A stretch of DNA of 64,000 bases from Thiobacillus sp. (GTDB taxonomy: Bacteria > Pseudomonadota > Gammaproteobacteria > Burkholderiales > Thiobacillaceae): NCBI GenBank assembly GCA_044227195.1, contig JBGAFQ010000002.1:7375-71374 (forward strand), written 5' to 3'. The notes beneath the pieces are model-generated. The model saw only the letters and a program-made list of their open reading frames with translations. It was not told the DNA's origin and made no database searches. Positions 1,406 to 8,523 of the stretch are shown here, piece after piece. A program made the translations under genes and the position numbers. Every line of letters begins with the position of its first letter. Position 1 is the first letter of the stretch.

Positions 1406-1780
1406 ATGAAGAATCCGACCGTTTCCCTCCTGGCGAGCCTGGCGCTGCTTGCCGCGTGCGCCACGCCCGGCGCGGCACCCATTGCCGTTCAGGCCGGTGC
1501 GCTGACCAACCCGTCCGGCATGACGCTGTATGTGTTCGACAAGGATGCCGCCGGTTCGGGCAAGAGCATGTGCAACGGCGATTGCGCCATGAAATGGCCG
1601 CCGCTGGCCGCCGCTGCCGGCGACAAGCCCGGCGGCGACTACAGCATCATCAGCCGCGACGACGGCAGCCGGCAATGGGCCTACAAGGGCAAGCCCCTGT
1701 ATCTCTGGTTCAAGGACCAGAAGCCGGGCGACATGACGGGCGACGGCGTCAACAACGTGTGGCATGCGGCTAAGCCCTGA
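1406..1780 (+). CDS. Secreted-repeat lipoprotein (COG4315/Lipoprotein_15-like)
   Basis: AAGGA RBS, lipobox LAAC, repeats GMTLYVFDKD and GKPLYLWFKD, CNGDCAMKWPP motif, GDGVNNVW end. Confidence 0.85.
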   Translation: MKNPTVSLLASLALLAACATPGAAPIAVQAGALTNPSGMTLYVFDKDAAGSGKSMCNGDCAMKWPPLAAAAGDKPGGDYSIISRDDGSRQWAYKGKPLYLWFKDQKPGDMTGDGVNNVWHAAKP

Positions 1781-2267
1781 GCCGGACCTCATCGGGCACT
1801 TGCCCCGTCTGCGCCGCTACGCGCGTGCGCTGACGGGCGACGTCGCACGCGCCGACGACCTGGTGCAGGACACGCTCGAACGCGCACTCGTCAAGCTGGA
1901 CCTGTGGCAGCCGGGCAGCGATCTGCGCGCCTGGCTGTTCACCCTGATGCACAATCTGTTCGTGAACCAGATACGCGCGCCCCGGCCGGCGGAGACCGCG
2001 CTCGACGAGGCGCTGGAGGTGCCGGTCAGCGGCGGCCAGATGGAGGCGCTGGCGGCACGCGACATGCATGCCGCGCTGCTGCGGCTGCCCGAGGAGCAGC
2101 GTGCGGTTGTCCTGCTGGTGGGACTGGAACAGTTCGGCTACGCCGAGGCGGCCCAGGTGCTGGGCGTGCCGGTCGGTACGGTCATGTCGCGGCTGGCGCG
2201 CGCACGCGAGCGGCTGCGGCACATCCTGGCGGGCGAGCCCGCCGCGCACTTGAAGGTGGTGAAATGA
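1764..2267 (+). CDS. ECF RNA polymerase sigma factor
   Basis: LPRLRRYARALT..ADDLVQDTL (region 2) and EAAQVLGVPVGTVMSRLARAR (region 4). Confidence 0.93.
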   Translation: MRLSPEPDLIGHLPRLRRYARALTGDVARADDLVQDTLERALVKLDLWQPGSDLRAWLFTLMHNLFVNQIRAPRPAETALDEALEVPVSGGQMEALAARDMHAALLRLPEEQRAVVLLVGLEQFGYAEAAQVLGVPVGTVMSRLARARERLRHILAGEPAAHLKVVK

Positions 2268-3034
2268 CGGACAGCGTGCACGAAGACGACCTGCATGCCT
2301 ACGTGGACGGCATGCTGCCGGAAGTCCGGCGTCTCGAAGTCGAGGCCTGGCTTGCGGCCCACCCGGCCGACGCCGGGCGCGTGCGGGCCTGGATGCAGCA
2401 GAACCAGGCCTTGCACGCGGCTTTCGACCCCGTGCTCAACGAGCCGCTGCCCGTTGAACTGGTACGCGCGGCACGCCGCCGGCCGCCCCGCCTGCCCTGG
2501 AAGGCGGCCGCGGCGACGCTTGCCATGGTCGCGAGCGGACTGGCCGGCTACGTCGCCGGCGTGCACACGACGCCCGAGGTCGCGCTGCCGCAGCTTGCCC
2601 GCGACGCTGCGATTGCGCATGCGGTGTTCAGCCCGGAAACCCGGCACCCGGTCGAAGTGGATGCGACCCATGCCGCGCATCTGGTCGGCTGGCTGTCGAA
2701 GCGCCTGGGCGCGCCGCTCGCGGCCCCCGATTTCGGCGCACTGGGTTTCGAACTGCTCGGCGGGCGCCTGCTTCCCGGCGAAACCGGACCGGTGGCGCAG
2801 TTCATGTACCAGGATGCGGCGGCGCACCGGGTGACGCTCTATGTCCGCCGCGACGTTTCCGGAAACCGGGAAACGGCATTCCGCCATGTCCGCGAGAACG
2901 GCGTCGAGGTGTTCTACTGGGTGGATCGCACCTTTGGCTACGCCCTGTCCGGCGAGATCGCGCCCGAACGCATGCGGCAACTCGCCGACGCGGCGTATCG
3001 GCAGCTGGAACAGCGGGATTCCGCCGGCGGCTGA
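2264..3034 (+). CDS. Transmembrane anti-sigma factor
   Basis: ATGA overlap with the sigma gene; N-terminal LHAYVDG motif, one TM helix, periplasmic domain HPVEV..HLVGWLSKRLG..APDF. Confidence 0.88.
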   Translation: MTDSVHEDDLHAYVDGMLPEVRRLEVEAWLAAHPADAGRVRAWMQQNQALHAAFDPVLNEPLPVELVRAARRRPPRLPWKAAAATLAMVASGLAGYVAGVHTTPEVALPQLARDAAIAHAVFSPETRHPVEVDATHAAHLVGWLSKRLGAPLAAPDFGALGFELLGGRLLPGETGPVAQFMYQDAAAHRVTLYVRRDVSGNRETAFRHVRENGVEVFYWVDRTFGYALSGEIAPERMRQLADAAYRQLEQRDSAGG

Positions 3035-3059: not shown

Positions 3060-5222
3060 CTAGCGGGTTTCCCGGATGCCGTCGCGCAGCAGCGTTTCCA
3101 TGTTCGCCGCCGGCACCGGCCGGCTGAAGTAGTAGCCCTGCACCTCGTCGCAGCCGTGCTGCCGCAGATAGTCGAGATGCGCGCGGGTTTCCACGCCTTC
3201 GGCGACCACGCGCAGCCCGAGCGCGTGGCCCAGGGTGATGATGGCGCGCACGATGGCGGCGTCGTCGGGATCGCTGTCGATGTCGCGCACGAAACTCTTG
3301 TCGACCTTGAGGCGGTCGACCGGAAAGCGCTTGAGGTAGCTGAGGCTGGAATAGCCGGTGCCGAAGTCGTCCACCGAGATGTCGACGCCGAGCGCCTTCA
3401 GCGACTGCATCGCGACATTGATGCGCTCGGCGTCGTGCATGACGAAGGATTCCGTCACTTCCAGTTCCAGGCAGGCGGGATCGAGCGCGGCTTCGGCGAG
3501 CGCGTCGGCCACCGATTGCACCAGGCCGGTGTGGCGGAACTGGATGGGCGAGAGATTCACCGACACGGCGATCGGCGACAGGCCGGCGCGCAGCCAGGCG
3601 CTGTTCTGGCGACAGGCCTCGCGCAGGATCCACTGGCCGATGGGAATGATGAGCCCGGTTTCCTCGGCGATGGAAATGAAGCTGTCCGGCGGCACGATGC
3701 CCTTGCCGGGGCAGTCCCAGCGGATCAGCGCCTCGGCGCCCACGATGCGGCCGCTGGCGATGTCGATGCGCGGCTGGTAGTAGACGCGGAATTCATTGCG
3801 TTCCAGCGCGTGGCGCAGGCTGTTCTCCAGTTCCAGGCGCTCGCTGATCGCCTGGTTCAGCTCGGGCGTGTAGAAGTGGTAGGTGCTGCGGCCGGAGGCC
3901 TTGGCCTGGTACATGGCGGCGTCGGCGCAGCGCAGCAGGGCGTCCGGGTCTTCCCCGTCGCGCGGGTAGCAGCTGATGCCGATGCTGCAGCTGAGCCCGT
4001 ATTCCTGGCCGCCGTCCACCCAGGGCCGGGAAATCGCGTCGAGCAGGCGGCTGACCACGGCGAGTATCTCGTCCTCGTCGTGCTGCTCGGTGAGCACCAG
4101 CACGAACTCGTCGCCGCCCTGGCGCGCCACGCTGTCGTTGCCGCGCACGCAGCCCGTCAGGCGCGAGGCCACTTCCAGCAACAGGCGGTCGCCGACGTGA
4201 TGGCCGAGGCTGTCGTTGATGAGCTTGAAATGATCGAGATCGACGAACACGACGGCGACCTGGTTGCCGTGCCGCCAGGCGTGGGCGATGGCCTGATCGA
4301 TCCGGTCGCGCAGCAGCGACCGGTTCGGCAGGCCGGTGAGGCTGTCGTGGCTGGCCTGGTATTCCAGCGCGGCTTCGTGCTGCTTGCGCTCGGTGATGTC
4401 CACCACCGTGCCCTCGTAGAACTGCACGCTGCCGTCGGCGTTTTTCACCGCGCGCGCGTTTTCCGAAATCCAGATGATGCTGCCGTCGCGCCGGTAGACC
4501 TGCGACTCGAAATTGCGGACGCTGCCCTGGGCCTGCATCAGGCGTACGAATTCCATGCGCCGTGCGGGCAGGACATAGAGCTGGCGCTGGATGTCGCGCA
4601 GATGCGCAATCAGGTCGTCCGGCGAGGCATGGCCGTAAATGTGCGCCAGTGCCGGATTCGCATTGAGATAGTGGCCGTCCGGCGTGGTCTGGAAGATGCC
4701 CTCTGTCGCGTGCTCGAACAGGCTTTCGTAGCGGCGTACCGCCTCGCGCAGCATTTCGTCCACCGCCATCCGCTCGGAGATGTCCTGGATATAGCCCTCG
4801 ATCCAGGCCACCCGGCCGCTTTCGTCGCGCACGCCAACGGCGCGTTCCAGCACCCAGCATACATAGCCGTCGGCGCGGCGGATGCGGTATTCCACATCGA
4901 ACGGAACATCTGCATCGAGCGCGGCCTGGATGACGCGCGCCACCCGTTCGCGGTCCTCGGGCAGCGTGATCTGATCGTAGGACACGCGTCGGTTGAACAT
5001 CAGCTCGTTCGGCCGGTAGCCGGTCAGCTTGAAGCAGCCGTCGCTGGCGTATTCCATCGTCCAGTCTGCATCGACGCGGCACCGGTAGATCATCCCGACC
5101 AGATTGTCGGTGATCGTGGTGAGCAGGCGCATGACGTCGAGCGGGGCACCCGGGTGGGGCGTCCGGTCGTTCGGCGGGCCAGGGTTCCCGGCAAGCGCCG
5201 TCTGGCAGGTGAAGCGTTTCAT
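3060..5222 (-). CDS. PAS-PAS-GGDEF-EAL diguanylate cyclase/phosphodiesterase
   Basis: Two PAS domains, intact RGND..RQGGDEF, EAL and DDFGTGYSS motifs. The start is uncertain (5222 or 5132); the ORF-track start at 5483 lies upstream of the sigma54 promoter and is unlikely. Confidence 0.92.
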
Positions 5223-5294
5223 CGCGTCGTGGCTGGCATTGGGTTGGATTATGGGCAGGCGCGGTCCGACCTGCCATGGCGGTGATGGCATCGG

Positions 5295-5310
5295 AGCAAT
5301 AGCCATGCCA
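5295..5310 (-). promoter_or_regulatory. Sigma54 -24/-12 promoter for the GGDEF-EAL gene
   Basis: The minus strand reads TGGCATGGCTATTGCT, with exact GG-N10-GC spacing against TGGCAC-N5-TTGCW. Confidence 0.75.
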
Positions 5311-5526
5311 TGTTCAGGCTGCAATCCGCACAATGGCGACCATACAGGTACAGGCGGGCTCGCGCGTGCCCACCGATCCGACGTGGCTGCAGGCTGCACA
5401 TCCGGCGTGTTCGATTGGGTGCGTGTGCACCATTCCTGGGCGCATCGGGGCGACCGGACGGCCCCCGCCCTTTTTAATTGCATGGCTTTTCGGTAGGCTT
5501 CGGGCTAGTCAGAGAAAACCGACCCC

Positions 5527-6378
5527 ATGCATTTCACCCCCGAATCCTTCCGTGCCTGGCCGAACAAGCGCGTCACCCTGCTGGGCATGTCCGGCGTGGG
5601 CAAAACGCACATCTCGTCCATGCTGCGCGGCCACGACTGGTTCCATTTTTCCGGCGACTACCGCATCGGCACGCGCTATCTGGACGAGCCCATCCTCGAC
5701 ATCATCAAGCAGCAGGCGATGCAGGTGCCCTTCCTGCGCGACCTCCTGCGCAACGACTGGATCGACATCAAGAACAACATCAAGATCCACGATCTCGGGC
5801 CGGTGCTCACCTTCGTCGGCAAGCTCGGCGGGCCGGCATGGGGTGGATTGTCGCTCGACGAATTCTCGCGCCGGCAGGCGGCGTACCGGGAGGCGGAAAT
5901 CGCCGCCATGCGCGACGTGCCTGCGTTCATCCGCAAGGGCCAGGAAATCTACGGCTATCCGCATTTCGTCAACGACGTCGGCGGCAGCCTGTGCGAACTC
6001 GACGAACCCGGCTTGATCGAACTGCTCGCCGAGCACACGCTCATTCTCTACATCCAGACCACCACGCGCGAGGAGGAGGACACGCTGATCCGCCGTGCCC
6101 AGTCCGATCCCAAGCCGCTGTACTTCCGCCCGGCCTTCCTCGCCGAACACCTGCCGGTGTATCTGAAGGAAAAGGGCCTGGAATTCGTCGCCCAGATCGA
6201 GCCGGACGATTTCGCCCGCTGGGTGTTCCCGCGCCTGTTCCATTCGCGGCTGCCGCGCTACGAGGCGATCGCCCAGCCGCACGGCTACACCGTCACCTCG
6301 CAGGAAGTCGCGCAGGTGCGCGACGAGCGGGATTTCATGGCGCTGGTCGAATCCGCCGTGGCGCGCAAGGGGCGCTGA
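5527..6378 (+). CDS. Uncharacterised P-loop NTPase/kinase upstream of metA
   Basis: Walker A GMSGVGKT near the N-terminus, shikimate/NMP-kinase-like layout (VNDVGGS), stop codon 1 nt before metA. Confidence 0.8.
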   Translation: MHFTPESFRAWPNKRVTLLGMSGVGKTHISSMLRGHDWFHFSGDYRIGTRYLDEPILDIIKQQAMQVPFLRDLLRNDWIDIKNNIKIHDLGPVLTFVGKLGGPAWGGLSLDEFSRRQAAYREAEIAAMRDVPAFIRKGQEIYGYPHFVNDVGGSLCELDEPGLIELLAEHTLILYIQTTTREEEDTLIRRAQSDPKPLYFRPAFLAEHLPVYLKEKGLEFVAQIEPDDFARWVFPRLFHSRLPRYEAIAQPHGYTVTSQEVAQVRDERDFMALVESAVARKGR

Positions 6379-6379
6379 A

Positions 6380-7432
6380 ATGCCGCTGGTCGCGCACAAT
6401 GCCCTGCCCACCTTCGAGCGCCTGCGCCGCGACGGCATGACCGTGCTCTCCACCGAGCGCGCGGCCAGGCAGGAAATCCGCGAGCTGCACGTCGGCCTGC
6501 TCAACATGATGCCGGACGCCGCGCTGGAGGCGACCGAGCGCCAGTTCTACCGGCTGGTCGGCGAATCCAACCCGATCGCGCAGTTCTACATGCATCCCTT
6601 CACCCTGCCCACGCTGCCGCGCGGCGACAAGGCGCGCGCGCACATCGCGTCGCATTACGAAAGCTTCGATGCCATCCGGGAGGCGGGCCTGGATGCGCTC
6701 ATCATCACCGGCGCCAACGTCAGCCAGCCCAGGCTCGCCGACGAGGCCTTCTGGCAGCCGATGATCGAGGTGATCGACTGGGCCTGGGACCACGTCACGT
6801 CGACCTTGTGCTCCTGCCTCGCCACCCACGCCGTGATGCAGTTTCGCTACGGCCAGACGCGGGTAAAGCAGCCGAACAAGATATGGGGCGTGTTCGAACA
6901 TCGGGTCGTCGACGCGCGCCACCCGCTGGTTGCCGACGTCAACACCCGATTCGATGTCCCGCATTCGCGCTGGAACGACGTCTCGCGTGCGCAGTTCGAG
7001 GCGGCCGGCGTCAAGGTGCTGGCGGAAAGCGCGGCGGCCGGCGTGCATCTGGCGGTGAGCCCGGACGGCCTGCGCACCGTGTTCTTCCAGGGCCATCCCG
7101 AATACGACACGGTGTCGCTCCTGAAGGAATACAAGCGCGACCTGCTGCTCGCGGCGGCGGGTACGCTGCCCGCCTATCCGCCGTTTCCCGCGCGTACCTT
7201 CGACTTGCAGGCACGCGCCCTGCTGGAGGAGTACGCCAGCCGCCTGCATGCCGGCGAGACGCTGGAATTCCCCGAGGCGCTGGTGGCGCCCCGCCTCGAC
7301 AACACCTGGCACGACACCGCCGAAGGCGTGGTCGGCAATTGGATCGGCTGCGTCTACCAGGTCACCCACCGCGAGCGCGGCCTGCCGTTCATGCCGGGGA
7401 TCGATCCCGACAACCCGCTGGGTCTGGCGTGA
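6380..7432 (+). CDS. metA: Homoserine O-acyltransferase (MetA family, probably succinyl)
   Basis: GLLNMMPD, LIITGANVS, catalytic CSCLATH and QGHPEY. A small residue (Ser) rather than Glu at the TGAPxG/E specificity position suggests succinyl-CoA use. Confidence 0.9.
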   Translation: MPLVAHNALPTFERLRRDGMTVLSTERAARQEIRELHVGLLNMMPDAALEATERQFYRLVGESNPIAQFYMHPFTLPTLPRGDKARAHIASHYESFDAIREAGLDALIITGANVSQPRLADEAFWQPMIEVIDWAWDHVTSTLCSCLATHAVMQFRYGQTRVKQPNKIWGVFEHRVVDARHPLVADVNTRFDVPHSRWNDVSRAQFEAAGVKVLAESAAAGVHLAVSPDGLRTVFFQGHPEYDTVSLLKEYKRDLLLAAAGTLPAYPPFPARTFDLQARALLEEYASRLHAGETLEFPEALVAPRLDNTWHDTAEGVVGNWIGCVYQVTHRERGLPFMPGIDPDNPLGLA

Positions 7433-8523
7433 TTCAGGCCAGCGCGCGATTCGACGCCGCCGAGGGGGCGCTCATCGCCAGCGGCGACTGGCACGCCGAA
7501 TCCGCTCGCGCATTGCCCGATCTCGCCGGCCAGGCCGTGCGCGTGCTCGACGGCGCCGGCGTGACCCAGCTCGATACCAACGGCGCCTGGCTGCTGCTGG
7601 CCGCGGCGCGACCGCGCGCGGGCGATCCCATGCCCGAGTTGCGGGCCTTCCAGCCCGGCCACCGGGCCATGCTCGAACTGGTGGCCGGCCATTGCGACGC
7701 CACCCAGGCGCAGCCGGCGCCGCCGCGCGAAGGCGTGCGCGCGCTCACCGGGCGTGGCGCGATGGCAATGTGGGGACATCTTGCCGGATTGCTCGATTTC
7801 ATCGGCCGGCTGTGCGTGGAAATCCTGATCCTGCTCGGCGATCCCGGCCGCTGGCGCTGGCGCGAATTTGCCGCGCAGGTGCGCGACATCTTCGTCGGCG
7901 CGATCCCCATCGTGGTCGGCATGCTGTTCCTGCTCGGCGTGGTGTTCGCCTACCTGCTCGGCTCGCAGGCGCAGCAATACGGGGCCAACATCTTCGTCGT
8001 GGACGGCCTGCTGATGGCGATCCTGCGCGAGATCTCGCCGGTCATCGTCGCCATTCTCATCGCCGGCCGCACCGGCGCGGCCATCACCGCGCAGATCGGC
8101 ACCATGAAGGTCACCGAGGAAATCGATGCCATCACCACGCTCGGACTGTCGCCGCTGGCGGTGCTGGTGATCCCGCGCATGCTTGCGCTGCTGCTCGCCA
8201 TGCCGCTCCTGGTCTACATCGGCGACATTGCCGGCATCGCCGGCGGGATGGTCGTGGCGCAGGAGCAGCTCGACATTTCCTATCACATGTTTCTCGACCG
8301 CACGGCCGACGTGCTGCTGCTGAAGACTCTGCTGGTCGGCCTCGGCAAGGCACCGGTGTTCGCCGTTTTCATCGCGCTCATCGCCTGCCGCATGGGCCTG
8401 TCGGTCACGCGCGACGCGCGCAGCGTGGGTGCACACACCACTTCCACCGTGGTGCAGAGCCTGGTGGCCATCATCATCCTCAACGCGATTTTCGCGGTGA
8501 TGTTCGTCAAGCTGGACATCTGA
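7429..8523 (+). CDS. MlaE-family ABC permease with N-terminal STAS-like domain
   Basis: GTG start overlapping the metA stop; REISPVIVAILIAGRTGAAITAQIGTMKVTEEIDA. Confidence 0.9.
   Translation: MIQASARFDAAEGALIASGDWHAESARALPDLAGQAVRVLDGAGVTQLDTNGAWLLLAAARPRAGDPMPELRAFQPGHRAMLELVAGHCDATQAQPAPPREGVRALTGRGAMAMWGHLAGLLDFIGRLCVEILILLGDPGRWRWREFAAQVRDIFVGAIPIVVGMLFLLGVVFAYLLGSQAQQYGANIFVVDGLLMAILREISPVIVAILIAGRTGAAITAQIGTMKVTEEIDAITTLGLSPLAVLVIPRMLALLLAMPLLVYIGDIAGIAGGMVVAQEQLDISYHMFLDRTADVLLLKTLLVGLGKAPVFAVFIALIACRMGLSVTRDARSVGAHTTSTVVQSLVAIIILNAIFAVMFVKLDI

Follow-up and report, generated by a model that had tools for sequence, protein, structure and literature searches.

A candidate non-orthologous homoserine kinase of an unnamed family, encoded directly upstream of metA in Thiobacillus

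Described homoserine kinases and the kinase-metA locus

The function of homoserine kinase is already known in several unrelated forms, and the recruitment of the shikimate-kinase fold for homoserine is known as well. The classical enzymes are ThrB of the GHMP type (TIGR00191) and ThrB_alt of the APH type (TIGR00938). HomK (TIGR02535; phosphoglycerate-mutase-like; Bacteroides, Dehalococcoides) is another non-orthologous solution to the same step and was recently confirmed by complementation (PMC13759103). In Desulfovibrio vulgaris, the shikimate-kinase-like protein DvMF_0971 is a proven homoserine kinase that rescues an Escherichia coli thrB mutant (10.1101/192971). Here we analysed a stretch of 64,000 nucleotides from Thiobacillus sp. 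(contig JBGAFQ010000002.1, positions 7,375 to 71,374 of the forward strand; hereafter the window), in which the gene of a 283-aa protein, P0001, lies directly upstream of metA. With a probability of roughly 0.7, we consider P0001 to be a non-orthologous homoserine kinase of an unnamed family, expressed together with MetA at the point where the pathways from homoserine divide. It would supply a step that seems to be missing in Thiobacillus, methanotrophs, many sulfur oxidisers and Rhodobacteraceae.

For twenty years, genome papers on methanotrophs, sulfur-oxidising symbionts, ammonia oxidisers and roseobacters have remarked on the apparent absence of thrB. The gene was reported missing in organisms of the sorts that carry the P0001 family, namely in Methylococcus capsulatus Bath (PMC517821), in the symbionts of vesicomyid clams (10.1101/2020.10.19.345819), in Candidatus Nitrosacidococcus (PMC8115276) and, by GapMind 2020, in Phaeobacter inhibens and Dinoroseobacter shibae; some of these gaps could be read as auxotrophy or accounted for by substitutes proposed case by case. 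GapMind 2026 traces most of the remaining gaps in amino-acid pathways to four steps, homoserine kinase among them, and lists thrB as missing in 16 of 208 prototrophs; other kinases were speculated to have taken over, with no such family named (PMC13759103). We found no description, enzyme assay or complementation of the P0001 protein in the searchable literature. Measured against that literature, what is new here is probably the P0001 family, its size and its coupling to metA, together with the likelihood that it closes this long-noted gap.

The gene pair in the window was composed of the following features.

5527-6378, + strand: P0001 gene, candidate homoserine kinase (283-aa open reading frame, ORF, and its translation)
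5584-5607, + strand: Walker A motif (P-loop) GMSGVGKT, P0001 residues 20-27 (read from the sequence)
5647-5670, + strand: FSGDYRIG motif, P0001 residues 41-48, with the invariant D44, after strand 2 (conservation in a 36-member alignment; AlphaFold2 model)
5971-5988, + strand: NDVGGS motif, P0001 residues 149-154, with the invariant D150, G153 and S154, after strand 3 (36-member alignment)
6367-6382, + strand: coupling junction between the P0001 gene and metA (read from the sequence)
6380-7432, + strand: metA, homoserine O-succinyltransferase of the long (~350 aa) subfamily (350-aa ORF and profile matches)

A preliminary description of this DNA, drawn up from its letters, had placed a 283-aa protein with the Walker A motif GMSGVGKT 1 nt before metA, and the two ORFs confirmed this arrangement. 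The TGA stop codon of the P0001 gene (6376-6378) is separated by the single base 6379 from the ATG of metA (6380-6382), and a Shine-Dalgarno-like AAGGGG (6367-6372) is located within the 3' end of the P0001 gene, 7 nt ahead of this ATG. MetA matched PF04204 (9.7e-89, 297.7 bits) and NF003776 (502.8 bits; cut-off 358). In the alignment to 7cbe and 6mtg, C146 (nt 6815-6817) corresponds to the catalytic C142 of E. coli, and the His/Glu motif GHPEYD is kept. This locus holds the one MetA found in its genome (90.7% complete), and no MetX was found in the same genome at that completeness. Upstream of the pair (4900-5700), no match to an Rfam family, e.g. a SAM (S-adenosylmethionine) riboswitch, was obtained, and no convincing promoter or terminator emerged from simple scans within the P0001-metA operon. 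Metatranscriptome contigs (four runs from three studies, 85-95% likeness) spanned both genes, and none spanned 5200-5427; as these contigs come from relatives and may include DNA, they demonstrate neither transcription of the P0001 gene nor a single transcript.

We infer the substrate of P0001, its reaction and the reason for its coupling to metA from comparative genomics, as follows. P0001 would combine a core of the shikimate-kinase/nucleoside-monophosphate-kinase (NMP-kinase) type, with P-loop and LID, and a substrate-binding lobe made larger by ~110 extra residues. It would phosphorylate L-homoserine with ATP to O-phospho-L-homoserine, the substrate of threonine synthase, and would stand in for the GHMP-type and APH-type ThrB, which are absent in Thiobacillus. 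Its gene would be co-transcribed and translationally coupled with metA, which encodes the other homoserine-consuming enzyme. The co-expression would be explained by the fact that both enzymes draw on homoserine at the threonine/methionine branch point, and by such coupling the two branch-point enzymes, one leading to threonine and isoleucine and the other to methionine, would be translated from a single mRNA in constant proportion. The preliminary description had proposed a metabolite kinase at the homoserine branch point. The evidence below points there; the step, which had been called unassigned, is probably the ordinary homoserine kinase step.

Fold and conserved residues of the P0001 family

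An AlphaFold2 model of P0001 was built on a 36-member alignment and reached a predicted local distance difference test score (pLDDT) of 96.5 and a predicted template modelling score (pTM) of 0.91. Foldseek against the PDB ranked shikimate kinases at the top, the comparison that had been recommended earlier. In a VIA-align structural search of the whole PDB, the nine best matches were all shikimate kinases (Z 13.1-10.9; root-mean-square deviation 2.7-4.3 Å), with 140-172 residues aligned, nearly the whole length of each; thymidylate, dephospho-CoA, adenylate and gluconate kinases came next at Z 8-10. Since shikimate kinases head the structural searches, the core of P0001 has the shikimate-kinase/NMP-kinase fold, and the small-molecule-kinase layout first read from the sequence is borne out by the structure.

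The shikimate kinases AroK/AroL (PF01202; PDB 2iyq, 1zuh, 3vaa, 1e6c, 1kag) share this core with P0001, their whole ~165 residues aligning at Z ~13, and the elements follow the same order (strand-P-loop-helix, Asp motif after strand 2, Gly-rich loop after strand 3, LID). However, P0001 shows no significant sequence match to them and exceeds them in length by ~110 residues, one of its lobes being much larger. The extra residues lie mostly between ~53 and 145 and, judging from the order of the secondary-structure elements, would enlarge the lobe equivalent to the acceptor-binding lobe of shikimate kinase. By position, FSGDYRIG may represent the substrate/Mg-binding Asp motif of shikimate kinases. 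NDVGGS, preceded and entered by a strand at residues 146-150 of the model, would likewise take the place of their GGG substrate loop. P0001 is not the shikimate kinase of its own genome, in which an ordinary AroK-like gene of 186 aa is encoded separately (G000 C42); hhalign of the family profile against this AroK aligned 30 columns around the P-loop.

At the sequence level, no Pfam or NCBIfam model covers P0001, with matches at P-loop level only, and a PDB sequence search with P0001 alone returned no match. P0001 is thus not a characterised enzyme of unrelated function; had it been one, the proposal of the preliminary description would have been refuted by its own terms. The family profile gave weak matches to shikimate and adenylate kinases in the PDB, and a Methylococcus homologue fell among generic P-loop kinase clusters in the ESM Atlas. 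In a large protein collection, >8000 relatives were scored, labelled "ATPase", "hypothetical protein" or occasionally "shikimate kinase", and an exhaustive HMMER search retrieved 599 clusters (50% identity), almost all with a length of ~280 aa. The protein had been called an orphan, which is right as regards the missing family model and wrong as regards rarity.

The family alignment (A1) comprised 36 diverse members, down to 31% identity. Twelve positions were invariant in all 36 (S22, G25, K26, D44, E124, D150, G153, S154, K196, P197, R241 and G253), and G20, G23 and T27 of the P-loop were nearly invariant. The nucleotide-binding and phosphotransfer motifs are intact in the family, and a LID-like PKP motif is conserved.

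Comparison with the models of shikimate and homoserine kinases gave weak signals only. Against PF01202 (SKI), P0001 had no match at E<=1, and 4 of the 36 members matched weakly (best E 0.0056). When the members were compared with 18,950 NCBIfam models, NF040667 (hom_kin_desulfo), the model of the Desulfovibrio kinase, was the most frequent weak match, with 31 of the 36 members and a best E of 4.2e-6. P0001 itself scored 13.5 bits over residues 16-52, where the cut-off is 197 bits over 163 positions, and other members scored 16-17 bits over the first ~40 positions; this likeness carries little weight because it does not extend beyond the P-loop region, which makes up the first ~40 residues. DvMF_0971 likewise has a shikimate-kinase fold and replaces ThrB where ThrB is absent. 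The two families differ in length (a model of 163 positions versus ~283 aa) and in taxa, and the P0001 family is metA-linked. P0001 matched neither TIGR00191 nor TIGR00938; ThrB and ThrB_alt, which have the same reaction and pathway role as those proposed for P0001, are of unrelated folds and show no sequence likeness to it. HomK differs from P0001 in fold and probably in its phosphate donor.

Distribution relative to ThrB and to metA

The genome of the window encodes a threonine synthase (thrC). At 90.7% completeness, neither GHMP-type nor APH-type ThrB was found in it above cut-off, no HomK above cut-off and no NF040667-type kinase; its APH-fold proteins are a SrkA/YihE-like kinase and AmgK. 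The P0001 family was present in 13 of 13 genomes of the genus (this genome and 12 others), and none of the 13 carried either ThrB type. In other families of the same order, all eight genomes carried APH-type ThrB and none carried the P0001 family. The missing ThrB is not due to incompleteness of the genome, because the 12 other genomes of the genus show the same pattern.

The same complementarity was observed across the class. We used a sample of 300 genomes drawn evenly, one or two per family, from the Gammaproteobacteria in the GTDB sense, which include the former Betaproteobacteria. Among the 235 genomes with thrC, 114 carried a known ThrB only, 81 the P0001 family only, nine both and 31 neither, giving an odds ratio of 0.03 (uncorrected for shared ancestry). 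Thirteen of the genomes with the P0001 family only are single-contig assemblies, and within each of two families (f11 and f98) one genome of each state was present, i.e. a within-family switch. These tallies take in three unpublished genomes, G039 (a carrier with MetA), G141 and G296 (both with APH-type ThrB); without them each count shifts by at most 2 and the conclusions are unchanged. Complete alphaproteobacterial genomes carrying the family lacked both ThrB types in five of five cases, and a complete Methylococcus genome of the class sample (G178) contained the kinase-metA pair and no ThrB. Phaeobacter and Dinoroseobacter were not among the matches listed (the best 120, in which other Rhodobacteraceae appear). 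We found no further missing step whose distribution follows that of the P0001 family.

The gene-neighbourhood profile proposed in the preliminary description showed that homologues are indeed linked to metA. In the class sample, 92 of the 300 genomes carried the P0001 family and 92 had a strong MetA match, 87 genomes being common to both, and in nearly all of these 87 the P0001-type gene was located directly upstream of metA on the same strand. Over 115 loci with both genes, the stop-to-start gap had a median of 6 nt, with 21 overlaps and 36 gaps of 0-5 nt; this tight spacing is not due to chance. The pairing extends to Alphaproteobacteria, namely Rhodobacteraceae (Sulfitobacter, Shimia and others) and Pelagibacterium, where the gene again precedes metA and the MetA is ~30% identical to that of the window. 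The family also occurs in Thermopetrobacter.

The linkage to metA is strong, yet obligatory in neither direction. Three genomes (G118, G295 and G129) have a P0001-type gene and no MetA anywhere, and in about eleven species of Thiobacillaceae and Rhodocyclaceae the gene lies away from metA, beside unrelated genes (psiE-chrB-chrA, an esterase, an EamA transporter, an FKBP protein, a racemase-like gene). Conversely, G238 has a long-type MetA without the P0001 family, and its metA adjoins a Cys/Met enzyme dependent on pyridoxal phosphate. These exceptions fit the distribution of ThrB rather than that of MetA: the three carriers without MetA all lack ThrB, and the genomes with MetA and without the family (G065, G081, G185, G238 and G263) have a classical ThrB in five of five cases.

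Some individual loci were unusual. In G158, the kinase gene (L127, 6478-7317) and metA (L129, 6829-7902) are on separate contigs, each just 3' of an HlyD-family gene, which may mean that the locus was rearranged, that the upstream gene was duplicated or that the assembly is mixed. In some Thiobacillaceae (L071, 6001-9688; also L067 and L076), the kinase gene has no metA neighbour and is followed by psiE and the chromate-resistance pair chrB-chrA. The genome G129 measures 5.1 Mb and has no MetA; downstream of its kinase gene lie a gene of the tyrosine phosphatase family (PF13350) and one encoding a phosphoenolpyruvate-utilising mobile domain (L126, 7015-9681). This context has a phosphotransfer flavour and was not seen in other loci. 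Long open frames in G118 and G295 had suggested a fusion; this candidate was rejected as a high-GC read-through artefact, the neighbours being separate genes for a major facilitator superfamily (MFS) protein and a P-type ATPase.

Alternative explanations and neighbouring genes

Several observations weigh against P0001 as a homoserine kinase. The phyletic pattern is uncorrected for ancestry, and another kinase could travel with the same lineages. Nine genomes have the P0001 family and ThrB together, and the 31 thrC-containing genomes with neither imply that further forms of homoserine kinase must exist. The unlinked P0001-type genes adjoin unrelated genes, and in none of the loci examined did a P0001-type gene lie beside thrC or hom. 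The likeness to NF040667 covers the P-loop, with a score far under the cut-off. The very tight, ancient linkage to two different MetA subfamilies could mean a role specific to MetA. Finally, the fitness data of Price et al. gave no homoserine-kinase candidate in Phaeobacter inhibens (10.1101/192971), whose genus was not among the best 120 matches listed for the P0001 family.

That last point on linkage leads to a dedicated partner of MetA, in which P0001 would bind, phosphorylate or regulate MetA, or sense homoserine, S-adenosylmethionine or ATP, and no O-phosphohomoserine would be made. It accords with the position of the gene immediately upstream of metA on the same strand in most carriers (87 of the 92 also have MetA), with the very short gaps and many overlaps, and with the persistence of the linkage beside the divergent MetA of Rhodobacteraceae. 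We nevertheless regard it as unlikely. The family occurs in three genomes without any MetA and is unlinked in about eleven species, a long-type MetA occurs without it, and the absence of ThrB in carriers is left unexplained; the small-molecule-kinase motifs and the enlarged substrate lobe also suit a metabolite better than a protein substrate. The preliminary description had offered a MetA-binding sensor or regulator as its second option, and this is disfavoured because in G118, G295, G129 and G238 the presence or absence of a known ThrB mirrors that of the P0001 family. The substrate could instead be another metabolite, such as a hydroxy-amino acid, an intermediate of methionine salvage or a cofactor precursor, with a regulatory or historical link to metA and the anticorrelation with ThrB a by-product of lineage. 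The fold alone leaves the substrate unfixed, given that thymidylate, dephospho-CoA, gluconate and adenylate kinases also score Z 8-10, and the 31 genomes with neither enzyme mean that unrecognised homoserine kinases exist anyway. This explanation appears doubtful in view of the complementarity with ThrB at close range (13/13 in the genus versus 0/8 in sister families), which recurs in within-family switches and in two classes; moreover, no other missing step tracks the family, and the sole consistent neighbour uses homoserine.

A P-loop protein that is non-catalytic or hydrolyses ATP only, e.g. a chaperone or assembly factor for an aggregation-prone MetA, is the least probable of the explanations considered. 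The public annotation reads simply 'ATPase', and the MetA of E. coli is unstable. Set against these points are the invariant D44, D150/G153/S154 and R241 at the acceptor-binding positions of shikimate kinases, the LID-like PKP motif, and the occurrence of the family without MetA. All three explanations are weakened by the two-way exceptions to the linkage together with the conserved acceptor-side residues.

We also considered a bolder reading, in which the kinase and MetA constitute a physically coupled branch-point module that is translationally coupled across alpha-, beta- and gammaproteobacteria. Such a module would explain why the translational coupling has lasted across these groups, and we hold it to be quite improbable. 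In one version, the pair would apportion homoserine to O-phosphohomoserine and O-succinylhomoserine in controlled proportions. In another, the kinase would modulate MetA directly, so that the synthesis of threonine and methionine would be balanced at the post-translational level in bacteria that have little control over transcription. As a further variant, the O-phosphohomoserine made by P0001 may also feed methionine synthesis, as in plants.

Should the P0001 family prove to be the homoserine kinase, a single annotation rule would be enough to complete the threonine pathway in roughly one third of the sampled gammaproteobacterial families (81 of the 235 genomes with thrC) and in many Rhodobacteraceae, and auxotrophy predictions for uncultured autotrophs and symbionts would be corrected. 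It would also represent a second, independent recruitment of the shikimate-kinase fold for homoserine. At least one more unrecognised form of homoserine kinase probably exists in the class. The genomes with neither type include G001, G027, G032, G144, G166 and G283, and several of them are 98-100% complete.

Downstream of the pair, the window contains a cluster of Mla-like transport genes.

7429-8523, + strand: MlaE-like ATP-binding cassette (ABC) permease with an N-terminal extension (ORF; its GTG start overlaps the metA stop, GTGA)
After the permease, to 10847: genes for an Mla-like ATPase, an MCE/MlaD-like substrate-binding protein and a lipoprotein (ORFs)

In tblastn searches, this cluster followed metA in the Thiobacillus clade only (loci L033-L062 and L070) and not in more distant carriers, and the Mla-like transporter was therefore rejected as part of the conserved kinase-metA unit. 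There is no terminator-like site between the genes, so metA and the Mla-like genes may share a transcript in this genus. On the other side of the pair, a PAS-GGDEF-EAL gene (cyclic di-GMP turnover; 3060-5483, - strand) is divergent from the P0001 gene; the listed ORF of 807 aa probably starts further in, which would leave ~250 nt of intergenic DNA before 5527. Further to the left are an extracytoplasmic function (ECF) sigma-factor gene (1764-2267), followed by a probable anti-sigma factor gene (region 1764-3034), and an allophanate-hydrolase/amidase-like gene (2-1315) that is cut off by the left edge of the window.

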